Below are positions 8,203-47,109 of a stretch of DNA of 64,000 nucleotides, piece by piece. The stretch lies in the IMG/VR virus record IMGVR_UViG_3300032227_000993; one strand, 5' to 3'. A model generated the notes under the pieces. The model did no database searches, was not told the DNA's origin, and saw only the letters and a program-made list of their open reading frames with translations. The stretch comes from a virus (lineage: Duplodnaviria; Caudoviricetes). Position 1 is the first letter of the stretch, and every line of letters starts with the position of its first letter. The position numbers and the translations under genes are program-made.

Positions 8203-8231
8203 ATTGTACTACAATTAGAATTTATTGTCAA
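8203..8231 (-). promoter_or_regulatory. sigma70-type promoter TTGACA-17-TACAAT
   Basis: Exact hexamers upstream of the phosphoesterase gene. Confidence 0.7.
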
Positions 8232-10360
8232 ATCGGCATTTGACTGATCAACTGGGCAAATTTTTCATAGTAGTCTTTGCGCGGTAATAAACCTCGTACC
8301 TGTTGTTGACTTTGTAAAGATTGTGGATTTGATTTATTACGGTCAGTTGTATTGGAATACCACTGAACAAAGGGCATTTTAAAATCTAAACACAAGGCTT
8401 GATTATTCCACATACCCGGACTGCTTTGAGTTTTCTCACCGTTGTTGTTGTAGTAAAAGTGTTTATGGAAAAACTCAACATCAAGCAGTAAATCGCAACG
8501 GTCAATAACCAGCGATTTAATTATGATATTTTTATCACGTAAAATATTGCCATCAACATCGACTTCTGTATCGTTTGTACCTTTGTTGGTCATCTGTAGA
8601 CTCAAGCAATTTAATTTATGAAGATCAATTACAGGAACTTCAAACTCTATTAAATGCTCACCTTGATCAAGGCAGCGTTCAACTATGGTAGTGTCGTTAA
8701 TTTTTACCACCAAGTTGGGATTAGTTATGCAAGCATTTGCCTCTACACCAAGTTGAACAGTCAACGATTTTTTGCTGTTTAGTATAGATTCAACCACTTG
8801 GTCAACATCAGCAATGGGATCAAACTGTGAAGTGTCGCCCTGTGCGTTGATATCAAAAAATTTATTAAGTCCGTCTAAATTGGCACGTGCTGATTCGTAA
8901 ACAGATTGTAATAAACTAGTTTCTTCAAGTTCAACACTCATATCCAACTCATCACATAACTTACTTAAAATTAAACGTCGCTGTAGTCTTACCTTGCTGG
9001 TGTTACCTCTATTGTTTCTGGCAATCCATCCAAACATACCTAAATCGTGTTGTTGATGAATATTGATATTGTAATCTGCTGGCGTGCCTGGGAGCAAATT
9101 GTAGGGTATTCCCAATAGCATACCGCTGATAGTTCCTGATCTAATGTAGGGGATGAGTTTAATGATCATGTCGCAATGATCCATAAAGTCTTCGTGACGC
9201 TCACTCCAGTGGCCTACAAAACTTAACAAGGTACACGAAATACCGTAGCGTTTGAAATAGTCTAGCTCAAAGAACAAAGCTTCGACTGTAGTTTTTTTAT
9301 CCATGTGGTCCAATACATAATTACTGCCGCTCTCGGCACCTATGGTCAAACCATGTCCTCCGCTTTTAACGATTGAGTCGTAGTATTGATCGATATCAGG
9401 CATATTCTGCATTTCTCGACAAATATATTGCCCAGTCCATGTGATGGGAATTGGAGCCACAGCATTATGTTGGATAAGTCTATTGATAAATTGTTTAAAA
9501 ATTTTCAAGCCGCCGTTACTCAAACTATCGGCCATTACAAATTTATTAATTTTAAATTTTTCTTGTAACGCAATTAGTTCTTCGGCAAATGCTACGCCGT
9601 CCTTGAACCGATACCGACCAAACTGTTTTTTAATATCGCAAAAATCACAGTCGCGTACACATCCGGTACTACCAATTACATCAAGCGACCGAACATTGTC
9701 GGGCCACTGGTATCTATCAAAATCATAATCGCTGTAGTCGGGCCAAGTGATATCTAAGTTGTCTCTTTTATTTTGTTTAGATTCGCTGGTGCCAGTAGCT
9801 AAAAACTCTAGCAGTGCATCTTCGGCATCGCCTATCACATAGTGTTTTACAAGGCCGCGATCTTTGAGTATGTAGACTAGGTCTGTTTTTACTTCAGAAC
9901 CTGTTATGTCTAATAAACTAATAGCTGTACTGGCTGGAAAGCAAGAGATGCCGCGTCCGCCAAGTACTATTCGATCAGTCATGCCTAATTTTTCAAATCG
10001 TCTTAATAAATCTATAGCAATTCGATGAGTGTAAACACTAAACACACTAAACCCAATGTATCTAGCATTGGCACTGATTACAGTATCAATAATGTAATCG
10101 TAAAATTCTTCTATCTGATTAATTTCGTCTGAATCAATCTCGGCACCTGGCACAATAAAATAATTTGATAGTCTGCTGGAAACATCAACGTTTCCTTTAC
10201 AACATACATGGAAAAAGTCACCAGAAAAATCAAAACATCTAGCACGGTACCCTGCTTCTTCGGCAATACCTTTTAAAATAGCTGGAGCCGAATAGATCCG
10301 ATCCATGCCTAGCGGTGGTAGCGAGCAGAATACTATGTCATAGTTGTAGTTATTATTCAT
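8228..10360 (-). CDS. cobalamin-binding-type (class B-like) radical SAM protein with C-terminal extension
   Basis: N-terminal B12-binding-like Rossmann region (GFSVFSVY, VLGG), GCVRDCDFC, IGAESGSNYVLDHMDK. Confidence 0.8.
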   Translation of the reverse strand: MNNNYNYDIVFCSLPPLGMDRIYSAPAILKGIAEEAGYRARCFDFSGDFFHVCCKGNVDVSSRLSNYFIVPGAEIDSDEINQIEEFYDYIIDTVISANARYIGFSVFSVYTHRIAIDLLRRFEKLGMTDRIVLGGRGISCFPASTAISLLDITGSEVKTDLVYILKDRGLVKHYVIGDAEDALLEFLATGTSESKQNKRDNLDITWPDYSDYDFDRYQWPDNVRSLDVIGSTGCVRDCDFCDIKKQFGRYRFKDGVAFAEELIALQEKFKINKFVMADSLSNGGLKIFKQFINRLIQHNAVAPIPITWTGQYICREMQNMPDIDQYYDSIVKSGGHGLTIGAESGSNYVLDHMDKKTTVEALFFELDYFKRYGISCTLLSFVGHWSERHEDFMDHCDMIIKLIPYIRSGTISGMLLGIPYNLLPGTPADYNINIHQQHDLGMFGWIARNNRGNTSKVRLQRRLILSKLCDELDMSVELEETSLLQSVYESARANLDGLNKFFDINAQGDTSQFDPIADVDQVVESILNSKKSLTVQLGVEANACITNPNLVVKINDTTIVERCLDQGEHLIEFEVPVIDLHKLNCLSLQMTNKGTNDTEVDVDGNILRDKNIIIKSLVIDRCDLLLDVEFFHKHFYYNNNGEKTQSSPGMWNNQALCLDFKMPFVQWYSNTTDRNKSNPQSLQSQQQVRGLLPRKDYYEKFAQLISQMPI

Positions 10361-10415
10361 TGATATTGGAAAAGAGTGTCAAATATTTATCTGACACTCT
10401 TGTAATGGTGTACTA

Positions 10416-10799
10416 CTAATTTAGTGGAAGGCCTCTTGCGGCCCTTCCACTACCTTTGTTTCTTGCGCTAAATGTATCAGTTTGGCTGTGACAGTTGGGA
10501 CATATTAATCTTAAATTCTCTGGATTGTTATTTCCAGCGTTTCCGTTGATATGATCAACTTGTAAAGTTAAAGGCTTATTGTTATGCTCGCTAATACCAC
10601 AGCAACTACATCTATAACCTTTAATTTCCGTTAACACTTTTCTAATAGTATTGCGATCACTTACTTCGCCACGATTAAATCTATTAATTGTTTTTGTAAA
10701 CATTCCTTTAGCACTACACCCATTACTACAATACACATTCATTTTGGAATGAGACCAATTAGATTTAATTCCACAACTTTTACAATTATATGTTTTCAT
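10416..10799 (-). CDS. HNH endonuclease (free-standing, in tRNA cluster)
   Basis: C..C zinc motifs, VDHINGNAGNNNPENLRLICPNCH. Confidence 0.9.
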   Translation of the reverse strand: MKTYNCKSCGIKSNWSHSKMNVYCSNGCSAKGMFTKTINRFNRGEVSDRNTIRKVLTEIKGYRCSCCGISEHNNKPLTLQVDHINGNAGNNNPENLRLICPNCHSQTDTFSARNKGSGRAARGLPLN

Positions 10800-10813
10800 A
10801 ATTTTAAATAGAT

Positions 10814-10887
10814 TGGAGCGGGTAGCGAGAATCGAACTCGCGAATAGTCCTTGGCAAGGACTCGGGTTACCATTACATCATACCCGC
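10814..10887 (-). tRNA. tRNA-Gly(GCC)
   Basis: Cloverleaf, loop TT-GCC-AA, U73, CCA. Confidence 0.95.
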
Positions 10888-10895
10888 ACTAAATC

Positions 10896-11486
10896 TTAAT
10901 AGCTTACTAGTCTTGGACTAAAAGCAAAAGTTGCTGGGTAGTTGGCAATAAATGCCGCATTGGTTGGATCATTGATGTAGGCTGGATCAACCAAGGCACG
11001 GATATTCCAACCAAGATTAAGATACAGGCACTTGCCAAAGATATGTACAAAAAGAACATATTGAAACAGGCCTTGACCTTTGACCAACAAGTGACCAGGA
11101 TTCTGTTCATTACAGTTCAAATCACCCGACCAACTCATACCGTCTGTGCCATGTAGATACTTGACAGCAAAGCCATAAAACGGATTACGCCATAACCACT
11201 GGACCTTTGACCACCAGCAGGGATTATGAGCGGCACGGAATGTTTGGTCACCATCTAGGCTGTTGTCCGGCGTTTGCCACCAACCTAGCCAACTAAACAA
11301 GCGTGGACCCGACTCCCATACAGTACCATTGTTACACCAACCTGTTTGGGTGCTGTACATGATGCCAATAATAAAAGCAAGTGGGAATGTTAAAATAGTA
11401 CCAACTAAGTTAACAGGAACTAAGACTAAAAAGTATAAAAAATAGATCATAAAATCTCCTTGTGAACTATTTAATGTGTTGTGCAA
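10896..11486 (-). CDS. hypothetical membrane protein
   Basis: Hydrophobic N-terminus, WWQTPDNSLDGD...WLWRNP. Confidence 0.65.
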   Translation of the reverse strand: MHNTLNSSQGDFMIYFLYFLVLVPVNLVGTILTFPLAFIIGIMYSTQTGWCNNGTVWESGPRLFSWLGWWQTPDNSLDGDQTFRAAHNPCWWSKVQWLWRNPFYGFAVKYLHGTDGMSWSGDLNCNEQNPGHLLVKGQGLFQYVLFVHIFGKCLYLNLGWNIRALVDPAYINDPTNAAFIANYPATFAFSPRLVSY

Positions 11487-11500
11487 CCTGATTAAAATAA

Positions 11501-11574
11501 TGGAGCGGGATATCGGAATCGAACCGATGACCGAAGATTGGAAATCTGCTGTTTTGCCCCTAAACTAATCCCGC
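11501..11574 (-). tRNA. tRNA-Gly(TCC)
   Basis: Cloverleaf, loop TT-TCC-AA, CCA. Confidence 0.93.
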
Positions 11575-11575
11575 A

Positions 11576-11650
11576 TGGTGGGCCTTCTAAGAATTGAACT
11601 TAGACTCCAACGATTATGAGTCGTTTGCTTTACCATTAAGCTAAAGGCCC
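11576..11650 (-). tRNA. tRNA-Ile2(CAT) (lysidine type)
   Basis: GGGCCTT/AAGGCCC acceptor, loop CT-CAT-AA, resembles bacterial Ile2 rather than Met. Confidence 0.85.
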
Positions 11651-11657
11651 AACAAAT

Positions 11658-11731
11658 TGGCTCCGAGCCAGGGAATTGAACCCCATCCAACAGGTTTGGA
11701 GTCTGCTGTGCTACCGTAACACTTGCCCGGA
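11658..11731 (-). tRNA. tRNA-Trp(CCA)
   Basis: Loop CT-CCA-AA, G73, CCA; A31-C39 mismatch. Confidence 0.88.
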
Positions 11732-11735
11732 ATTG

Positions 11736-11817
11736 TTAGGTGAGAGTTATCCTCTCAAAACCGTACCTTACAGCGTCCTGTAAGTTCACTAGTAAATCCT
11801 AGTTATCAAAGTGAGCA
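11736..11817 (-). ncRNA. candidate three-hairpin structured RNA between tRNA-fMet and tRNA-Trp
   Basis: GCTCACTT, then hairpins ACTAG/CTAGT, CTTACAG/CTGTAAG, TGAGAG/CTCTCA, then CCTAA; same end motifs as 45216-45309. Confidence 0.5.
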
Positions 11818-11842
11818 TTGTTAAGAGGCTTGACCGGGTGTT

Positions 11843-11916
11843 TGGTTGCGGGTCCTGGAATCGCACCAGGGACTAGAGCTTATGAGACTCTCGAGATACT
11901 CCTTCTCCAACCCGCG
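11843..11916 (-). tRNA. tRNA-fMet(CAT)-like, divergent
   Basis: C1:A72 mismatch, loop CT-CAT-AA; anticodon stem AGAGT/GCTCT lacks the three G-C pairs; T-loop TGCGATT. Confidence 0.8.
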
Positions 11917-11922
11917 ATAGAT

Positions 11923-11998
11923 TGGTGGAGGTGACAGGACTTGAACCCGCTACATCCTGCTTGCAAAGCAGGCGCTCTACCAGATGAGCTACACCCCC
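11923..11998 (-). tRNA. tRNA-Ala(TGC)
   Basis: Canonical cloverleaf, G3:U70, loop TT-TGC-AA, CCA. Confidence 0.95.
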
Positions 11999-12006
11999 AA
12001 ATAATT

Positions 12007-12081
12007 TGGTACACCCTAGGAGAATCGAACTCCTCTTCCGCCCGTGAAAGGGGCGTGTCCTAACCGATAGACGAAGGGTGC
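12007..12081 (-). tRNA. tRNA-Glu(TTC)
   Basis: Stem CGCCC/GGGCG, loop CT-TTC-AC, CCA. Confidence 0.93.
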
Positions 12082-12084
12082 TAA

Positions 12085-12240
12085 GTGCCCGGCTACGCTT
12101 ATGTCGTGCGCCCCGGGCTAGGAATAATCATCGTTAGCTAGATCCGCTCTAGCTGGCGTGATAGATTTAAGTCTAACCTATCCAACCCTTGACTTTCTGG
12201 CAAGTCCGCAACCCCCGATTAAACCCCCGAGCAGGGTGAC
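12085..12240 (-). ncRNA. candidate GC-rich multi-hairpin RNA between tRNA-Tyr and tRNA-Glu
   Basis: Hairpins GACTT/AAGTC, GATAG/CTATC, AGCTAGA/TCTAGCT, GCCCGG/CCGGGC; no ORF. Confidence 0.45.
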
Positions 12241-12245
12241 ATTCT

Positions 12246-12329
12246 TGGTGGAGAATACTGGGATCGAACCAGTCATGCCGTAGGCGCCGGATTTACAGTC
12301 CAGTGCATCACCATTGATGCTTCTTCTCC
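12246..12329 (-). tRNA. tRNA-Tyr(GTA)
   Basis: Long variable arm, loop CT-GTA-AA, A73, CCA. Confidence 0.93.
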
Positions 12330-12330
12330 A

Positions 12331-12442
12331 TATAGTAAAGCGCACTCAATCCTAGAAGTTTCGAACCTTCTAAGTAACCCGCGGAAGGTGTACCGGTAAG
12401 ACTCCGCATTTATGTATTAAGTGGCAAGTGCGCTTTACTATA
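12331..12442 (-). ncRNA. candidate tRNA-like RNA closed by a 16-bp perfect inverted repeat
   Basis: TATAGTAAAGCGCACT (12331-12346) / AGTGCGCTTTACTATA (12427-12442); internal TAGAAG-GTTCGAAA-CTTCTA T-arm-like hairpin and GCGGA/TCCGC hairpin. Confidence 0.55.
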
Positions 12443-12505
12443 CACTAATTTTTTGTTCTACAAGAAGAACTCCATCCTAGTGCCCGCCCGTTTGTGTTAA
12501 GTTAT

Positions 12506-12535
12506 AGTGTAACACAGGACCTCGTTTCCTGTCAA
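12506..12535 (-). promoter_or_regulatory. sigma70-type promoter TTGACA-18-TACACT upstream of tRNA array
   Basis: Hexamers on minus strand; spacer contains ACAGGA/TCCTGT inverted repeat. Confidence 0.6.
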
Positions 12536-12551
12536 CCACTTATCTTGCTGT

Positions 12552-12722
12552 TTAATCTTCGATTTGAAAATAAACAGCGTCTCGTGCCTGGATCATTTCC
12601 TTGGCACGTTGGATCTTGTTTTGAAACAGTCTGGTCTTCATTTCTTCAGTCAGCGTTAAGTTACTGACTTCCCAGGCTTGTTTTACAACTCGATCGTTTA
12701 GATTACTGTAATCTATTGTCAT
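12552..12722 (-). CDS. small hypothetical protein (56 aa)
   Basis: MTIDYSNLNDRVVKQAWEVSNLTLTEEMKTRLFQNKIQRAKEMIQARDAVYFQIED; GAAAGGAA RBS. Confidence 0.6.
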   Translation of the reverse strand: MTIDYSNLNDRVVKQAWEVSNLTLTEEMKTRLFQNKIQRAKEMIQARDAVYFQIED

Positions 12723-12736
12723 ACATTTCCTTTCAT

Positions 12737-12767
12737 AAAAAAAGCCCCTAACTACTTAGAGGCTTTT
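12737..12767 (-). terminator. intrinsic terminator (attenuator candidate)
   Basis: AAAGCCTCTAA-GTAG-TTAGGGGCTTT followed by T-run. Confidence 0.75.
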
Positions 12768-12790
12768 GAATAATAAACAAATACACACTA

Positions 12791-12892
12791 CTATTCAAAC
12801 GCCTTGACTCCTAGTTCTACGCCGCAACCATTGGCCCACACCCCAATTTGATTAGGAAGTATTGTTAAGAGTGTATATATTAAATGTTTCAT
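12791..12892 (-). CDS. putative leader peptide (33 aa)
   Basis: MKHLIYTLLTILPNQIGVWANGCGVELGVKAFE, downstream of ATAAATA (12920-12914) and upstream of a terminator. Confidence 0.5.
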   Translation of the reverse strand: MKHLIYTLLTILPNQIGVWANGCGVELGVKAFE

Positions 12893-12958
12893 AATAGTGT
12901 TATTGTACTAGGTTATTTATCTTTTGTCAACCTGTATTTTACCATAAATATCGACTCA

Positions 12959-13975
12959 ATGCTCAAACTCCACGAAATACAACAACTTCAGATAGAATTA
13001 ACCACTAGATGCAATGCTCGCTGTCCTTTGTGTATGCGAAACTATCGCGGTATGGAACACAACGATGGTTATCCAGAAACAGAACTACGCTTGGCAGATA
13101 TCCAGCGGATGTTCCCCGCAGAATTTCTAAAACAAATCAAACGGATACTGTTCAACGGTAATCTTGGAGATTTTGGTCTGGCCAAAGACAGCATAGAAAT
13201 AGTAAAATATTTTTTAGCCAACGGCATCAAAGAAATTGATATTTCCACCAACGGAAGTATGCGAACCACAGATTGGTGGGCACAATTAGCCTTACCAGGA
13301 GTTACTGTAGGGTTTGCTCTGGATGGCATGGCCGACACACACCATTTGTACAGACAAGACACAGACTGGCACAAAATTATTGAAAACGCTCAAGCTCTAA
13401 TACAGGCTGGCGGACGTGCTGTATGGCGTTTCATTCCATTTGATCACAATCGACATCAGATGGAAACTTGCCGGGCATTTTCAAAACAATTGGGATTTGT
13501 TGATTTTCAGGACATTGGGCATGGAAGAAATCGAACTTATGTCTACAATCGTACTGGCGAGTACAGTCATCTTATCGGCGAACCGTTTCAGCCATCGGAC
13601 TTGACCGACCCGCCCAAGATACAACAACTGGTAGAGCATCATCTTACTTGGTTTGATCCAAAAACATTCAAACAAGAACAAGACACCAGCGATTTGGAAA
13701 TTGATTGCCATCATAAACGATTCAAGGAACTGTATGTAGCTGCCAATGGAGAAGTGTATCCCTGCTGTTTTCTTGGCTTTTATCCGCAGACAATGCATCA
13801 TCCAGGCAATGTACAATTAAAACCTATTGTAAAACAAAACAATGCGTTGCACTACAGTTTAGAAACGTGTATTGAGTGGTTCAACGACGTAGAGGAATCA
13901 TGGCATCGCGAAAGCATTGCCGACGGTAGGATGTACATTTGTGTCAATACCTGTGCCGTAAAAAAAGCACCCTAG
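12959..13975 (+). CDS. radical SAM/SPASM protein (paralog of 5506-6510)
   Basis: CNARCPLC, GNLGD, TNGSMR, PCC; likely start MLKLHE at 12959, 8 nt after TAAATA. Confidence 0.85.
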   Translation: MLKLHEIQQLQIELTTRCNARCPLCMRNYRGMEHNDGYPETELRLADIQRMFPAEFLKQIKRILFNGNLGDFGLAKDSIEIVKYFLANGIKEIDISTNGSMRTTDWWAQLALPGVTVGFALDGMADTHHLYRQDTDWHKIIENAQALIQAGGRAVWRFIPFDHNRHQMETCRAFSKQLGFVDFQDIGHGRNRTYVYNRTGEYSHLIGEPFQPSDLTDPPKIQQLVEHHLTWFDPKTFKQEQDTSDLEIDCHHKRFKELYVAANGEVYPCCFLGFYPQTMHHPGNVQLKPIVKQNNALHYSLETCIEWFNDVEESWHRESIADGRMYICVNTCAVKKAP

Positions 13976-13986
13976 GGTGCTTTTTT
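13960..13986. terminator. bidirectional intrinsic terminator
   Basis: AAAAAAGCACC-CTAG-GGTGCTTTTTT between convergent genes. Confidence 0.85.
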
Positions 13987-14000
13987 GTTACATTTAAAAA

Positions 14001-14738
14001 TTATTCAAATGTTTTGGTTAATGTAGCTACCCAAGCATCTTTGTACAACTGCTGACCATTGACGGTATTAGCACGTTGATTCTGAGTAGTCATGCTTGTG
14101 TTTGTGTAATAACGAACACCAATATCCCAAGCCTTGGGTAATGTGTAAACAGCACCTACGTTGATATCATTATAACTTGCGTTACCATGATTAGCAACTG
14201 CTGTACGACCATAGTGAGCAACAAAACTCAAGTCTTTGAGTTTAGCTGTCAAAGGAGCGAACGATTGTTTAACATCGGCTTGATAGTATTGTGTACCAGC
14301 ACTATTATTCACACCAAAGTAATTACTAGTAGAACGACTGTACTTAAGAGCAACAGGACCATAACCTACGCCAGCATACAATTCTTGTGTGTTGAAGTTA
14401 GGATTTTTACCATTGGTAGCATTAGGATAAAAATAGTTATAAGAACCAACATCGATTGTTAGACCCTTGTAAATATCTTTCTTGTATCCAGCATAGATGT
14501 CTGACTCTACACCAGCGCCGTTTGTATACAGTTGGCTAGAAACACTACTGTTCCAGTTACCAATGTACAAACCGCTTGAGTGAGTGTAGTCGATACCACC
14601 TTGTACTGCTGGGCCATTTTGAGTTTGACTGATACCACGGAAACGGTAATCACTTGCCAAACCTAAATTGCCTGTTACTTGTGCGTGGGCAGAAGTGATA
14701 CCTGCAATCGCAAACAATGCTAATAATAATTTTTTCAT
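14001..14738 (-). CDS. TorF-type (TIGR02001-like) outer-membrane beta-barrel/porin
   Basis: Signal peptide, SDYRFRGISQT, PAVQGGIDY, GLYIGNW, alternating beta strands, C-terminal TKTFE. Confidence 0.8.
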   Translation of the reverse strand: MKKLLLALFAIAGITSAHAQVTGNLGLASDYRFRGISQTQNGPAVQGGIDYTHSSGLYIGNWNSSVSSQLYTNGAGVESDIYAGYKKDIYKGLTIDVGSYNYFYPNATNGKNPNFNTQELYAGVGYGPVALKYSRSTSNYFGVNNSAGTQYYQADVKQSFAPLTAKLKDLSFVAHYGRTAVANHGNASYNDINVGAVYTLPKAWDIGVRYYTNTSMTTQNQRANTVNGQQLYKDAWVATLTKTFE

Positions 14739-14843
14739 TCTAAATTTCCTTTATGTTTTGTACTGCTTAGACTTATATTTAGTGGGCCAACAACAGATCA
14801 ACAAATTTTACAGTAAAAGCAGCGCAATAATTTACATATTTAG

Positions 14844-14870
14844 GCAAAACAAAACCCGCCGAAGCGGGTT
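14844..14870 (-). terminator. intrinsic terminator after tmRNA
   Basis: AACCCGC-TTCG-GCGGGTT followed by TTGTTTTG. Confidence 0.8.
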
Positions 14871-14874
14871 AAGT

Positions 14875-15230
14875 GGTAGTTTCTGTTACGAGGCATTTCC
14901 TGCCCTAAGCAGTGATTAAACTGCTAAAGATTGGCGTTGTGCTGAACGAGCAGAGAACTTAACGTTCTTACCTGAAACAGTTACTTCGCCTGTAGATGTT
15001 TTTGCATTTACAAAGTTTGCTTGATTTACAGTCATCGCCTACTGTGTTGCCTCTTTCGCTATCTCGCCATGTCGAAACCGGTCGGACCCAACAAAGCATA
15101 CTGTGTGGATCTTACGATGGGCCCTCGAAGGGTTGTCCCCACACTCCAGTAGACAATATGCTTTGGTGGATCCGGGGAGAATCGAACTCCCGTCCACAGC
15201 GCCTTCACTACGAAGGAATTACAACAATTC
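14875..15230 (-). ncRNA. ssrA: circularly permuted two-piece tmRNA
   Basis: Acceptor piece (T-arm GGGAGTTCGATTCTCCC, CGGATCC-A-CCA ending 15164) precedes intervening hairpin AAGCATA/TATGCTT and coding piece starting GGGTCCGACCGGTTTCGAC at 15089; G3:U70; tag ORF 15005-14916 AKTSTGEVTVSGKNVKFSARSAQRQSLAV. Outer ends approximate. Confidence 0.88.
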
Positions 15231-15239
15231 TTTTAAAAC

Positions 15240-15479
15240 TTACAGAACGATTTCAGCACTTGCTGGATTGTACGAGGTAATGTATGTGATCCAAGCATCA
15301 GCAGCATTTGTATCTTTCCAAGTACGAGCAACAGTATATTGTGTTTGACCAAAAGTTCTAGTAGCAGCACCGTCGGTGTCGCCATTAGCAACTAATTGTG
15401 CAACATATTCTGTGATAGCAGTACTTTCGGCAGTTGTTGGAGTTCCGTTATTCCAAGTTACTAGTGTGTTAGTAGTCAT
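15240..15479 (-). CDS. hypothetical protein (79 aa, Thr/Ala-rich)
   Basis: ORF with AAGGA RBS. Confidence 0.6.
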   Translation of the reverse strand: MTTNTLVTWNNGTPTTAESTAITEYVAQLVANGDTDGAATRTFGQTQYTVARTWKDTNAADAWITYITSYNPASAEIVL

Positions 15480-15495
15480 ATAATATCCTTAATAA

Positions 15496-15582
15496 TTATT
15501 CATCTTTTTCAAGATAATCTTTTAATTCAATAAGTGCGTAAATTAATACAGCACTCATAACAAACATTGCAAACATAACCAT
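15496..15582 (-). CDS. small membrane peptide (28 aa)
   Basis: MVMFAMFVMSAVLIYALIELKDYLEKDE, coupled to upstream ORF. Confidence 0.4.
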   Translation of the reverse strand: MVMFAMFVMSAVLIYALIELKDYLEKDE

Positions 15583-15583
15583 A

Positions 15584-15751
15584 TTAGTTATATCCTTTAA
15601 CAGCCTTACCGTCAATTTTGGGATTGCCCTTTGCATGAGCTTTTAAGAAATAATCCTTTTTACGCTCTTCTGGCAAGGGACCACATCCTAATCTATCCCA
15701 CTCTCGATCAGAGTAGTAATACTGCTGTACAGGCTTTTTGTTCTGTTCCAT
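15584..15751 (-). CDS. small hypothetical protein (55 aa)
   Basis: MEQNKKPVQQYYYSDREWDRLGCGPLPEE..., 8 nt after TAAATA. Confidence 0.55.
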   Translation of the reverse strand: MEQNKKPVQQYYYSDREWDRLGCGPLPEERKKDYFLKAHAKGNPKIDGKAVKGYN

Positions 15752-15873
15752 AGTAGTAATATTTACCTAAATTAATTAGTTTACTGGTAGCTCGAGCATT
15801 GTAACTCAAGATTTTGAGTATTGTGTGTTTCTACGTTATTATCAAGGCCTTATTAATGTGCAGTTTAACAGGG

Positions 15874-16242
15874 TTATTGATAATTGTCAAGAAATTTTTC
15901 TAAATTGCCATACAAATTGAGCAACATGGCTTCTTTACTGCTAAAAAACACAATATCTACTGGAAAACTCTTTTTAGTTACAACATAATAGGGATTTTGT
16001 AATTTTCTATCCAAATCTAATATGGTCTGTTGGGTAAACAGCATTTCATCGGGTATTTTGTAGGGGTAAAATTTTAATTCTAAGTGTTCGGATAATACTT
16101 TGTATCCTAAGGCTGTCAAGCGCAAGCCGCCACCGGGCCTAATATTAAACCACCAACTGGTTCTGGCAACTTCTACTGTGGTTGTAAACTGAGCAGGAAG
16201 TTGAGCTACCAATTGCTCAGTAAGTTTAAGTTTATTACGCAC
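15874..16242 (-). CDS. phage hypothetical protein
   Basis: 122-aa ORF, WWFNIRPGGGLRLT...LDRKLQNPYY. Confidence 0.7.
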   Translation of the reverse strand: MRNKLKLTEQLVAQLPAQFTTTVEVARTSWWFNIRPGGGLRLTALGYKVLSEHLELKFYPYKIPDEMLFTQQTILDLDRKLQNPYYVVTKKSFPVDIVFFSSKEAMLLNLYGNLEKFLDNYQ

Positions 16243-16246
16243 AACA

Positions 16247-17479
16247 TTATTGGACGTCTAGCAACCAAGGCTCTGCTTCGGTGATAGCCGCAAAATATTC
16301 AGGCATGACTTCTTCAAACTTTTGGCTGCGAATCTTATCAAGAGCTTTAAGTTCGTACCAAAATTTAGGAAAATAAATGTTGCATCCAGCGATGTTGTTT
16401 TTTAACAAGGAGATAACGTTATCCAACTTTAATTTTGTCTGTGGAGCAGAGTTCTCAAATCTTTCAATCAAGGCATTTTTGACTGGTTGAGGCAAATGTC
16501 TAAAATCATATTGTTCAGGCGTGTACACAACATTAATTCCAAACCCAATAGAATGATTTGACAGACCTTCTACTATTGTATCTAAATACCAAATATTAAA
16601 AATACTAACAGTGATACAAATGTAAATAGAAACATTTTTATGTTCTTTGGCAAAGGCAATGTACTTGTCTAAGTTTTCAAATAGCTTGTCGGCCTTGACC
16701 CCGTAACGGACATAACTCAATTGCGCCGGGTCAACTGCGTCAATACTGATGCCAATTCTGGCTGATTTAAATTTAGGCAAACAATCAATGTAATCTTGAT
16801 TCCAAATAGTACAGTTGGTGTGTATCTGTACATCTGTGTTCTTGGCGCCACCTTCGTCGGCCACTTTAATCATACGGTCCCACATGGCAGGAGCAAGTAA
16901 GGGCTCGCCGCCGTAGATGTCAAGGAATACCAAACCTGGCAACCAACGCTCAAAGGTATCCCACACAGGTAAATTATCACGGCCAAAGCCATCGCGAATA
17001 GTTTCAAACTGACTTGTGTATTCTTTAAATGATCCTTCAAAGGTACCTTGTACTTGTTCTAACTTGTAAAAGTCTTGATACAAGCCAGTCGATGTGGCTG
17101 GTTGACAAGTGCGGCAACCCAAGTTGCACACGTTACTTGGTTTTAAAATCAACACATGAGGTTGATCCTCTGGCATATCCAGCGTGGCCAACTCGGCATT
17201 GAATTTTTGTCTGGTAGAAACTACTCCTGCCGCTTCATCATTCCAGCAGGCATGACAACTTGGAATCCGTTCACCAGCATCAAGTTTGGTGATAATTTCA
17301 TTGCGTGAAGGACTGTCCCACATATCTTGAAGTCCAGTATCGTACAAATACATTGCTTCGCCGTTGACAGTATTTCCGAACGATGCATTGTTTTTGTTAC
17401 ATACACAACAGTCGCCTTTATTTTGTACTGCCATTGATACGTGTGAGAGTTTGCAATAGGTTGCTGATTTTGTTGTCAT
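16247..17479 (-). CDS. radical SAM/SPASM-type protein
   Basis: CNLGCRTC, YGGEPL, N-terminal CCVC and C..CW. Confidence 0.85.
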   Translation of the reverse strand: MTTKSATYCKLSHVSMAVQNKGDCCVCNKNNASFGNTVNGEAMYLYDTGLQDMWDSPSRNEIITKLDAGERIPSCHACWNDEAAGVVSTRQKFNAELATLDMPEDQPHVLILKPSNVCNLGCRTCQPATSTGLYQDFYKLEQVQGTFEGSFKEYTSQFETIRDGFGRDNLPVWDTFERWLPGLVFLDIYGGEPLLAPAMWDRMIKVADEGGAKNTDVQIHTNCTIWNQDYIDCLPKFKSARIGISIDAVDPAQLSYVRYGVKADKLFENLDKYIAFAKEHKNVSIYICITVSIFNIWYLDTIVEGLSNHSIGFGINVVYTPEQYDFRHLPQPVKNALIERFENSAPQTKLKLDNVISLLKNNIAGCNIYFPKFWYELKALDKIRSQKFEEVMPEYFAAITEAEPWLLDVQ

Positions 17480-45216: not shown

Positions 45217-45309
45217 GCTCACTTAAGCAATGCCTTCCGGGCACGACTCCTTAGCATCACAAGGCAGCAGCCGCCTACACCAAACGTAACTAAGTTACGG
45301 TCCTAAGGT
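45216..45309. ncRNA. candidate rRNA-mimic / rRNA-antisense structured RNA
   Basis: Plus strand carries AGCTCACT, CAGCAGCCGC, CGTAACTA and ACGGTCCTAAGGT, identical to conserved 23S/16S rRNA segments, within three hairpins. Confidence 0.55.
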
Positions 45310-46454
45310 GATTCTTTTAATAAATGACTGATAGCCGGCACCATGGCATGGACGTCAAGATCACGCTCGGCAGCTAATAATGTTGTTTGCTTTTTTAATT
45401 CATCGAGACTACTGTACGCTTGATCATTCAAACGATCTACAGCTATTTTAAAGGGATTACCCAATGAGGCGTGCCAGTTGCCCGGTACAGTATCAGCATA
45501 TTCTAAAAACTGTTCTGTAAGTTTGAGTTTTTCATCTGCCGGCAATAACGATACTGTTTGCCAAGCTGGCCAGGATATCCAATTGAAACTCATTTTCCAT
45601 GTTGGAAATTTATCTATCATGTATTGAATAATATTTTTTAAATCATAGATATTAAAGATATTCATTACTGTATGTGTTTCTAAACTGATGTTTGGATGAT
45701 TGCCCCATAAATCTTGATATTGTTGCATTACAGATTCTACCTGCTCAAATTTACTTGGCCAACGATACCAATCATTTACAGAGGCAATGCCGTCCAAACT
45801 AACTTTTAATCTAACCAATTTACATTGTTCGATCAAGCCGCTTAATTCAGCATTTGGTAATTTTGTTCCGTTGGTGGCAATGTACATAGATTCAATGTTA
45901 TCAAAGTTAATTTTTTTCATCAAATTGATAAAGCGTTTTTGTTCCATAAACGGTTCGCCACCAATAATTTTAAGTTCAGTTATTTGTGAGAGATCTTCTA
46001 ACTCTTCGATTGGATGACCATGTTCAACAAAACTACCACTAAGATTACGTCCGTGTTTAAAATCTTCAGTGGCCCAGGTAGACGAAAAAGATCTAGTGCA
46101 ACTTACGCAGGCAAGATTACACAGGTTACTAAAACTCATTTCTAAAAATTTTAACGGAGCAGCTTCAACTTTGGTGTAAGTAGCTGGATATTGATCGCGG
46201 CGTATTGTGCGTAAACTTTTAGCGCCACTTGCTTCTTCGGTGTAACAATTAGAGCACTCTTTAACAGATTCTCCGGCTAACATTTTTTGCCTGATGTTTT
46301 GCCAGCCTGGTTGGTTGCGCATATCTGGACCCATTGGGTTCTCAACAGGCCATAGGTGATATTGTTTAGGTTTGAACTTACAACAAGGAATTGAAGTACC
46401 GTCAGGGCGTACTGCTAAACTATCCCATGCCCACTGGCACATTGAGTCATTCAT
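45303..46454 (-). CDS. radical SAM/SPASM-type protein
   Basis: CNLACVSC, GGEPF, TNG, N-terminal PCC...C..C; likely start MNDSM at 46454 after AGGA. Confidence 0.85.
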   Translation of the reverse strand: MNDSMCQWAWDSLAVRPDGTSIPCCKFKPKQYHLWPVENPMGPDMRNQPGWQNIRQKMLAGESVKECSNCYTEEASGAKSLRTIRRDQYPATYTKVEAAPLKFLEMSFSNLCNLACVSCTRSFSSTWATEDFKHGRNLSGSFVEHGHPIEELEDLSQITELKIIGGEPFMEQKRFINLMKKINFDNIESMYIATNGTKLPNAELSGLIEQCKLVRLKVSLDGIASVNDWYRWPSKFEQVESVMQQYQDLWGNHPNISLETHTVMNIFNIYDLKNIIQYMIDKFPTWKMSFNWISWPAWQTVSLLPADEKLKLTEQFLEYADTVPGNWHASLGNPFKIAVDRLNDQAYSSLDELKKQTTLLAAERDLDVHAMVPAISHLLKESP

Positions 46455-46467
46455 GCTGTTCCTAATG

Positions 46468-47109
46468 TTAATTTTTTCTGAAACTAGGTGCCGACGTGTA
46501 TCCAGTTCTATCAATTTCTTCGGCTTGACTAAGTAAACCAACTTTAGTATCAATCATAGCTTTTGCCCACATTATTTGATTGCGGACAAAAATATCAATC
46601 ACATCGTCTGGATCTTTTCTACTTTTAATATCCATGCCATCATCAACAGCACTTACAAACGCATCAGGTGGAACTGTAAAACCCAAGTAGCTGGCAAATC
46701 CAAATGCCTTGGCGGCTGTAGCTTGCCAGCCATCATCGGACCCAGATACGATAATGCCAAATGTTTTACCATAGTGCGGATTAAAATTATTTTTAATCCC
46801 CCAATCATCTATGTAACCCATGCGTTCCATAAGTGCTTGTATGTAACTGCTGTATGTACCCCACCAAATAGGTGTAGCAAAAATAATACCGTCGTATTTT
46901 AGTATTTCTTTTAGAACCCAAGTCATGTCATCAGCAACGCCGTCTCTGCGTACTCGATCTACACCAGGCTCAAAATTTAAATCTCTTAAAACAATTTCAT
47001 TAACTTCGACACCGTGACGATTGAACTCAGCAATGACTCGATCAACTACCTTTTGAGTATTTGATTCTTCTGGCGGTGTTAGAGATCCATTAAGAACAAG
47101 AAATTTCAT
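46468..47109 (-). CDS. flavodoxin-like NAD(P)H-dependent FMN reductase (WrbA/SsuE family)
   Basis: LVLNGS...SNT, DGIIFATPIWWG, GKTFG. Confidence 0.85.
   Translation of the reverse strand: MKFLVLNGSLTPPEESNTQKVVDRVIAEFNRHGVEVNEIVLRDLNFEPGVDRVRRDGVADDMTWVLKEILKYDGIIFATPIWWGTYSSYIQALMERMGYIDDWGIKNNFNPHYGKTFGIIVSGSDDGWQATAAKAFGFASYLGFTVPPDAFVSAVDDGMDIKSRKDPDDVIDIFVRNQIMWAKAMIDTKVGLLSQAEEIDRTGYTSAPSFRKN

Follow-up and report, generated by a model that had tools for sequence, protein, structure and literature searches.

Leader-peptide attenuation is a textbook mechanism, whose trp-type subclass is defined by segments 1:2, the anti-antiterminator or pause hairpin; these segments do not define the mechanism as a whole. 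In ermK-type and related uORF leaders known from Term-seq, drug-bound ribosomes stall and resistance genes are controlled. Leaderless leader peptides, with a start codon at the transcription start, have been predicted for attenuators of Deinococcus deserti (PMC4007540). In the abstracts of two reports on the trn operon of Anabaena PCC 7120, an accessory tRNA array is kept low and switched on when translation is impaired (PMC8421152, PMC10272220); title and abstract of the 2023 report name a transcriptional repressor, TrcR (PMC10272220), and the words attenuation, leader, and terminator are absent from the 2021 paper (PMC8421152). The descriptions of leader-peptide attenuation that we could find all concern amino-acid, synthetase, or resistance genes; none concerns tRNA genes or phages, and full-text literature searches returned no description of an attenuator for phage tRNA genes.

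Here we describe a compact cassette in a window of 64,000 nucleotides (the whole stretch of DNA analyzed) from a large, uncultured freshwater phage of the class Caudoviricetes, IMG/VR record IMGVR_UViG_3300032227_000993. On the strength of folding models and of the comparison of relatives, we consider with moderate confidence that this cassette would act as a ribosome-mediated (leader-peptide) transcription attenuator heading a transcription unit made up of a small gene, ORF56, and tRNA genes.

The locus and its relatives

Nearly all genes in the window run in the same direction, and they include those for a family-B DNA polymerase, an exonuclease, several radical SAM enzymes, and a two-piece tmRNA; an HNH endonuclease gene sits among the tRNAs. 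The features of the locus are as follows.

12958-12723, read on the minus strand: intergenic stretch between a divergent radical SAM/SPASM gene and ORF56
12959-13975, plus strand: radical SAM/SPASM gene, in which radical SAM and SPASM domains were found, divergent from the cassette
12930-12737, minus strand: the cassette, from promoter to terminator
12930-12902, minus strand: cassette promoter of the sigma-70 type, with -35 box TTGACA (12930-12925), a 17-nt spacer, and -10 box TACAAT (12907-12902)
12892-12794, minus strand: leader ORF of 33 codons, with stop codon TAG at 12793-12791
12799-12788 with 12776-12765, minus strand: P1, a 12-bp AU-rich hairpin in which TTTGAATAG... pairs with ...TTATTCAAA
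12763-12737, minus strand: intrinsic terminator, with 5' arm GCCTCTAA (12763-12756), loop GTAG (12755-12752), 3' arm TTAGGGGC (12751-12744), and a run of seven T (12743-12737)
12733-12552, minus strand: ORF56 with its Shine-Dalgarno sequence, AAGGAA (12732-12727); the gene occupies 12722-12552 and encodes 56 aa
12535-12506, minus strand: second promoter, TTGACA-18-TACACT, TG-extended, between ORF56 and the tRNA genes
12329-10814, minus strand: first block of the tRNA array, comprising a tRNA at 12329-12249, then Glu, Ala, Met, Trp, Met, Gly(tcc), a 196-aa gene, and Gly(gcc)

The divergent enzyme gene is one of four radical SAM genes in the 64-kb window (8228-10360, 12959-13975, 16247-17479, and 45303-46553), two of them with SPASM domains, a number unusually high for a phage. 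Beyond it, at 14001-14738 on the minus strand, lies a gene for a Gcw_chp family protein (Pfam E = 9.5e-51) with a signal-peptide-like N terminus and a resemblance to outer-membrane beta-barrels; in many relatives this gene is the immediate upstream neighbor of the cassette promoter.

Relatives were collected by three routes. The 196-aa gene of the tRNA array led to five homologous cassette copies, ORF56 led to 14 viral and 80 metagenome loci, and an exact 16-mer scan of viral contigs gained one further locus. A search with the divergent radical SAM gene gave 22 loci, none syntenic with a tRNA array, and was useless for judging conservation. All relatives found are uncultured freshwater viral or metagenome contigs; INPHARED, searched by DNA and by ORF56 protein, gave no cultured relative and returned only tRNA-to-tRNA matches or nothing.

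A covariance model, R1, was built from 16 cassette copies. It found exactly one sense-strand copy in 79 of 80 related records (12739-12817 in the window), the remaining record having no upstream DNA, as well as one weak antisense partial match, in L158. All cassette copies lie just upstream of ORF56, and at every ORF56 locus with upstream DNA the gene is preceded by promoter, ATG, ORF, stop-bearing hairpin, terminator, and Shine-Dalgarno sequence. The conservation of uORF and terminator, which the initial annotation had set as a check on itself, thus extends to every relative found. In L163 (1034-1500) some 390 nt separate the attenuator from ORF56 downstream, and they encode an endonuclease-VII/HNH-like motif (DHCH...RGLLC..CN), in what looks like a homing endonuclease insertion between terminator and ORF56.

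Promoter and leader ORF

The cassette promoter is close to consensus (11/12 matches) and was the top-scoring site in a scan of the 6 kb from 10000 to 16000. The ATAAATA noted earlier at 12920-12914 (minus strand) is present and is a conserved motif within the spacer of this promoter: the arrangement TTGACA-n4-ATAAATA-n6-TATAAT recurs in 55 of 56 distinct relatives parsed, and L215/L216 carry TTAATTA in the spacer. A fixed motif in this position is unusual, promoter spacers being normally free to vary. A reading of ATAAATA as a T4-type late promoter was rejected, TATAAATA not being enriched in the window (2 found against 4.6 expected). Elsewhere, a look-alike promoter at 7477-7461 was considered as the start of a second attenuator and rejected; it drives an ordinary gene with a Shine-Dalgarno sequence.

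The 33-codon ORF that had been reported to follow ATAAATA is likewise there, with all the codons listed for it (ATA twice, TGG, GGC/GGA, and GAA). Its ATG stands only 9 nt past the -10 box and has no Shine-Dalgarno sequence, so that the mRNA would be leaderless or nearly so. The leader ORFs of relatives, 27 to 53 codons long, occupy the same place and start 6 to 11 nt past the -10 box; in L189 and L197 (~1250-1482), an ORF of the EGWDD class that ends in P1 starts ~70 nt downstream of the promoter and is not leaderless. The 53 distinct ORFs, with 1854 codons in all, contain no in-frame stop, and the two remaining frames contain 223 and 141; a frame that is never broken implies that the leader ORF is translated or at least selected to stay open. 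The small peptides diverge to 16 to 22% identity, and the 5' two-thirds of the RNA are poorly conserved. Certain peptide motifs recur (WAN-CG, ANLW, and EGWDD), and most of the peptides have Cys. The pN/pS of the leader ORF, ~0.5, leaves room for a peptide with its own function; a comparison of its pN/pS with that of ORF56 was discarded, the choice of pairs being biased.

Two other roles for this unit may be weighed against these data. In the first, the ~155-nt terminated transcript would serve mainly in trans, as a regulatory small RNA or as one with a dual function. The stable hairpins, and a discrete unit running from promoter to terminator, would suit such an RNA, and attenuator-derived RNAs can act in trans, as is reported for rnTrpL of Sinorhizobium meliloti (PMC6614838). 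Such an RNA would not need an open frame, yet the frame is open in 53/53 distinct copies and always ends in P1; this and the poor conservation of the 5' two-thirds make the small RNA highly improbable as the main product. The second makes the small ORF a RiPP precursor, matured by the neighboring radical SAM/SPASM enzyme, as its divergent position, the domains of the enzyme, and the Cys of most peptides might suggest. Only 21 of 71 loci, however, have a homologue of the enzyme in the 1.5 kb upstream, so that strict co-occurrence is absent, and the relatives found through the enzyme are not syntenic with tRNA arrays. With no leader/core organization seen in the peptides and a C terminus dictated by RNA pairing, we regard the RiPP precursor as extremely improbable.

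Stop-bearing hairpin and terminator

P1 folds with -8.2 kcal/mol (z = -2.65 against shuffles), and in the window its 5' arm contains the leader stop codon. The hairpin forms in 43/43 distinct sequences and holds a stop codon in its 5' arm in 41 of the 43, whatever the frame or the stop codon. It has a long and variable AU-rich loop, and its stem switches sequence wholesale between classes. TGAATA is kept though it is read in different frames, the stop being TGA in some classes and TAG or TAA in others, and further classes swap both P1 arms together, to GATTAGAC with GTTTAATC or to CTCGA with TTGAG. The sequence TTGAAT-17-TATTAT (12798-12770) was considered as a promoter and rejected; the GATTAGAC/GTTTAATC classes retain the hairpin and lose the -10 box.

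The terminator hairpin (-10.3 kcal/mol) directly adjoins P1. What had been described as complementary arms abutting a strong terminator thus appears as the 12-bp P1, followed by a terminator with seven T. A simple terminator scan did not list the cassette terminator, which is supported by its folding and by RNAalifold on 48 sequences, with compensatory changes in three of the five consensus pairs. RNAalifold on a MAFFT alignment recovered the terminator only, the P1 arms being out of register between classes; an alignment made with a covariance model took its place. Stop codon and U-tract lie 50 to 61 nt apart in all relatives, irrespective of ORF length (27 to 53 codons).

A fold that competes with the terminator

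According to the initial annotation, TTTGAATA pairs with TATTCAAA in front of the terminator. That pairing exists; however, it only adjoins the terminator, and P1 and the terminator can coexist, so that by itself it is no antiterminator. An antiterminator arises only when the P1 helix continues at its outer end, where the last five to eight codons, which are G-rich, can pair with the spacer and with 4 to 8 nt at the start of the terminator 5' arm, in a fold available before the terminator 3' arm is made. In the window the two strands are as follows.

12815-12788, minus strand: antiterminator 5' strand, with ACU (12815-12813), GGA (12811-12809), GGC (12803-12801), and the P1 5' arm (12799-12788)
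12776-12754, minus strand: antiterminator 3' strand, with the P1 3' arm (12776-12765), GCC (12763-12761), UCU (12760-12758), and AGU (12756-12754), overlapping the terminator 5' arm and loop

With the pairs GGC/GCC, GGA/UCU, and ACU/AGU, the window RNA ending before the terminator 3' arm folds at -16.3 kcal/mol, compared with -8.2 for P1 alone (z = -2.4 against a shuffled flank). Over 51 distinct sequences the mean extension energy is -10.8 kcal/mol, against -4.0 for shuffled flanks (mean z = -2.6), and the z score is negative in 12/12 cluster representatives. Extension is weak in the EGWDD subclass with TTGAATA (L139-L142, L161, and L207), where z lies between -0.1 and -1.4. The native combination of flank and arm is better than one with a swapped arm in 44 of the 51 sequences (-10.8 against -8.5 kcal/mol); since a G-rich flank and a C-rich arm occur in all classes, this complementarity is partly compositional and partly class specific. 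The peptide end RGSE, for example, is encoded as AGG GGT TCT GAA where the arm is ACCCUGG and as CGA GGT AGC GAA where the arm is ACCUCGG. Positions 0 to 3 of the terminator arm are paired in the antiterminator in 46 to 51 of the 51 sequences.

In an alignment of 71 distinct rows fitted with the covariance model, 86.5% of cells are base-paired, and both partners have changed in 13 of 16 pairs. The antiterminator scores 0.355 for covariation, compared with 0.159 for shuffles (0/500 reach it) and at most 0.087 for slid partners; as the alignment was fitted to the structure, these values count as support and not as proof. A crude test of whether the terminator 5' arm pairs upstream gave no separation (native 0.67, shuffled 0.62) and gave way to the nested-extension test. 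No conserved upstream partner of the antiterminator 5' strand that could serve as an anti-antiterminator or pause signal was found.

The two states are nearly balanced. Antiterminator and P1 plus terminator differ by a mean of only 0.24 kcal/mol, and the barrier to refolding along the direct path is modest (median, 6.7 kcal/mol). In these models, then, only one of antiterminator and terminator can form at a time, and their energies are about equal.

Modeled ribosome position and leader codons

The effect of a translating ribosome was modeled by masking 30 nt around the A site and computing partition functions, an equilibrium calculation. With the mask at the stop codon or within the last six codons, the terminator probability is 0.98 in 53/53 sequences. 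With the mask further upstream, or absent, its mean is 0.47 to 0.67. Without a ribosome the RNA is bistable, at ~0.6; since the terminator retains that probability, the effect of a switch would depend on folding kinetics. The order in which the strands emerge during transcription should favor the antiterminator further. For the window the modeled switch is sharp: A sites at -15, -12, and -9 give terminator probabilities of 0.39, 0.19, and 0.01, and at -6 or later the value is 0.98. In L140, the sole member of the EGWDD subclass printed in the mask model, the terminator wins in every modeled state. A ribosome at the stop codon reaches ~15 nt downstream, and the terminator stem starts 27 nt downstream; lying beyond that reach, the stem would be free to fold, which would explain the conserved spacing between stop and U-tract.

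These positions define a short stretch of the leader in which the place of the ribosome would matter.

12838-12818, minus strand: proposed decision codons, -15 to -9, TGG GCC AAT GGT TGC GGC GTA (W-A-N-G-C-G-V)

These seven residues are the best conserved part of the window's peptide class. Tandem runs of one codon, as in the trp, his, or phe leaders, are absent. Across the family, W and C are each enriched ~6- to 7-fold at the decision positions, and where the peptide is under no RNA constraint W, C, L, and N are enriched 1.9- to 2.8-fold. Trp, Cys, Asn, Leu, and Gly are abundant among the decision codons, and their tRNAs are among the commonest in the arrays; amino-acid enrichment correlates with the frequency of tRNA isotypes in the arrays (rho = 0.56, p = 0.01).

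The initial annotation held that the leader codons are read by tRNAs encoded downstream. In the window itself the match is not significant: the 13 array tRNAs can read 47 to 56% of the codons in the leader, where the background is 35 to 43% (p ~0.1). Family-wide the claim fares better, and a match between leader codons and array tRNAs has moderate support from the sequences. At positions -15 to -9, 42% of codons are read by the nine tRNAs most common in the arrays, compared with 27% upstream and 29% in phage genes (p = 0.011 with 12 cluster representatives), the sequences being related and the decision window having been chosen post hoc, after the structural model.

The same evidence bears on whether the ORF is simply a small gene in its own right. 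Its product would then be a 33-aa micropeptide acting in trans, and the terminator would be constitutively leaky, with ORF56 and the tRNAs reached by fixed read-through (and, here, from the second promoter as well) and with the pairing setting the level of the leak or being incidental. An ORF kept open by selection, the amino-acid constraint implied by a pN/pS of ~0.5, and the recurrent peptide motifs all agree with such a gene, as do the one subclass with little switching and the codon match that falls short of significance in the window. Against it, the geometry of the RNA stays fixed where the peptides diverge, the C-terminal residues follow what the helix demands of its nucleotides (different reading frames for TGAATA, and two encodings of RGSE for two arms), the structure covaries, and the two states are about equal in energy. 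The peptide, moreover, has no family match. We judge the stand-alone gene unlikely and retain attenuation as the preferred reading.

ORF56 and the tRNA genes

ORF56 is the first gene that read-through of the terminator would reach. It is strongly conserved (mean column identity of 69% over 59 distinct homologues, with 12 invariant residues) and has no match in Pfam or PHROG. Its predicted model consists of two helices (mean pLDDT, 75), a hairpin too simple for a fold search. The gene always lies between the terminator and the tRNA genes, and ORF56 might act together with the switch or with the tRNAs.

Its position also suits an override of the terminator by a protein. Lambdoid immediate-early units consist of a promoter, a small gene, a terminator, and further genes, and the layout here is similar. 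A phage or host protein, possibly ORF56 itself, could bind the P1/antiterminator RNA or RNA polymerase and override the terminator later in infection, in the manner of lambda N/nut or HK022 put, the leader ORF being secondary. A small, helical, highly conserved protein encoded always directly behind the terminator would be a candidate. Such a factor would not account for the preservation of the ORF or for a stop codon placed so strictly within P1; nor was a conserved protein-binding motif seen, given the variable loop of P1 and a stem that changes between classes, and no boxA/boxB-like or put-like family was matched. Timed, factor-dependent antitermination is on this evidence distinctly unlikely.

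Beyond ORF56, 66 of 71 loci have tRNA genes in the next 1.7 kb, several of them as close as 15 nt or less to the ORF56 stop codon, and in the window further tRNAs succeed the first block down to 2635. The first tRNA after ORF56 in relatives is often Tyr(gta). In the window, the tRNA at 12249-12329 (minus strand) was called by Rfam with 37.6 bits and missed by ARAGORN; a long-stem RNA (12442-12331) lies between the second promoter and this tRNA, and a GC-rich spacer of 164 nt (12245-12082) comes after it.

The internal sigma-70 promoter placed at 12506-12535 by the initial annotation is present; a comparable site between ORF56 and the tRNAs was detected in only 17 of 71 relatives. In the other 54 none was detected, so that the tRNA genes there appear reachable solely through the cassette terminator. 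In this window the second promoter would, by its sequence, be an independent input to the tRNAs, and ORF56 would still need read-through.

Discussion

The initial annotation saw here an attenuator in front of a tRNA operon. Its core stands, in that a conserved uORF and terminator head a unit that leads into tRNA genes; however, the pairing it named is insufficient alone, and its codon argument does not reach significance in the window. In the model that we prefer, leader-peptide attenuation, a strong promoter would produce an mRNA with its AUG at the 5' end or a few nucleotides from it. A ribosome at the last six codons or the stop would cover the antiterminator 5' strand and stay ~27 nt short of the terminator stem; with that strand covered, the terminator would fold and transcription would end, leaving a leader RNA of ~155 nt. 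A ribosome delayed upstream, or never loaded, would allow the antiterminator to form first, and RNA polymerase would then read into ORF56 and the tRNA genes. In the window, the stall sites that matter would be the W-A-N-G-C-G-V codons, -15 to -9.

What such a switch would sense is a weaker inference. It could report a shortage of tRNAs for Trp, Cys, Asn, Leu, and Gly and so form a feedback loop on the phage tRNA supply. We put forward tentatively, as a possibility that falls short of being probable, that the phage tRNA array is under homeostatic control in the style of the trp operon: the phage would translate a leaderless test peptide whose decision window is written in codons for the commonest array tRNAs (Trp, Cys, Asn, Leu, and Gly), only slow decoding of these codons would lead to read-through, and accumulating phage tRNAs would shut off their own synthesis. 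Slow decoding could arise early in infection, if the host tRNA pool is unfit for the phage, or after tRNA-targeting defenses have cut host tRNAs; that the leader senses cleavage of host tRNAs is pure inference.

If the switch works as modeled, it would show large phages controlling their own tRNA supply through a direct reading of translation speed. This would bear on why phages carry tRNA arrays and on how they answer host defenses that deplete tRNA, and it would explain a recurrent, unannotated cassette of promoter, mini-ORF, and terminator in freshwater phage genomes. The cassette would also be a compact natural sensor of decoding capacity.

Comparison with known attenuators and tRNA-responsive systems

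The closest parallels are the attenuators of amino-acid operons (trpL, hisL, leuL, pheL, thrL, and ilvL of Escherichia coli) and of pheST. In these, as in the phage cassette, a short ORF and an intrinsic terminator stand between promoter and genes, the antiterminator 5' strand overlaps the end of the ORF, and the stop codon lies ~50 to 60 nt before the U-tract; a stalled ribosome leads to read-through and a completed ORF to termination, as modeled here. The phage cassette would differ in controlling a small protein and tRNA genes rather than biosynthetic or synthetase genes, and its leader mRNA, unlike those of the amino-acid operons, is leaderless or nearly so. It also differs from trp-type leaders in having no run of a single codon and no 1:2 anti-antiterminator or pause hairpin that we could find; without that hairpin, an untranslated phage leader is predicted to read through and not to superattenuate.

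A search of the Rfam leader, T-box, and cis-regulatory families gave no match at gathering thresholds; the best matches below them were SpF41 (27.2 bits against a threshold of 52), Phe_leader (26.4 against 55), and bglG-cis-reg (22.7 against 80). T-box riboswitches, for which the Rfam search had no match at the cassette, resemble the proposed switch in that a choice between terminator and antiterminator reports the state of tRNA; unlike the phage cassette, they bind uncharged tRNA directly and have no ORF.

The leaders of Deinococcus deserti share with the cassette a leader-peptide start at the transcription start, upstream of attenuator-controlled genes; they are bacterial, rich in one residue, and placed before tRNA synthetase or amino-acid genes, in which they differ from the phage leader (PMC4007540). 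The trn operon of Anabaena resembles the proposed phage switch in output, an accessory tRNA array induced by translational stress, and differs in its means, the transcriptional repressor TrcR (PMC10272220).

Leaders of the ermK type differ from the phage cassette in that no arrest motif is known in the latter and its output would be tRNA. The logic of the two would nevertheless be alike: any stall in the uORF upstream of the antiterminator strand would favor read-through, and the cassette would then serve, as those leaders do, as a general sensor of trouble in translation.
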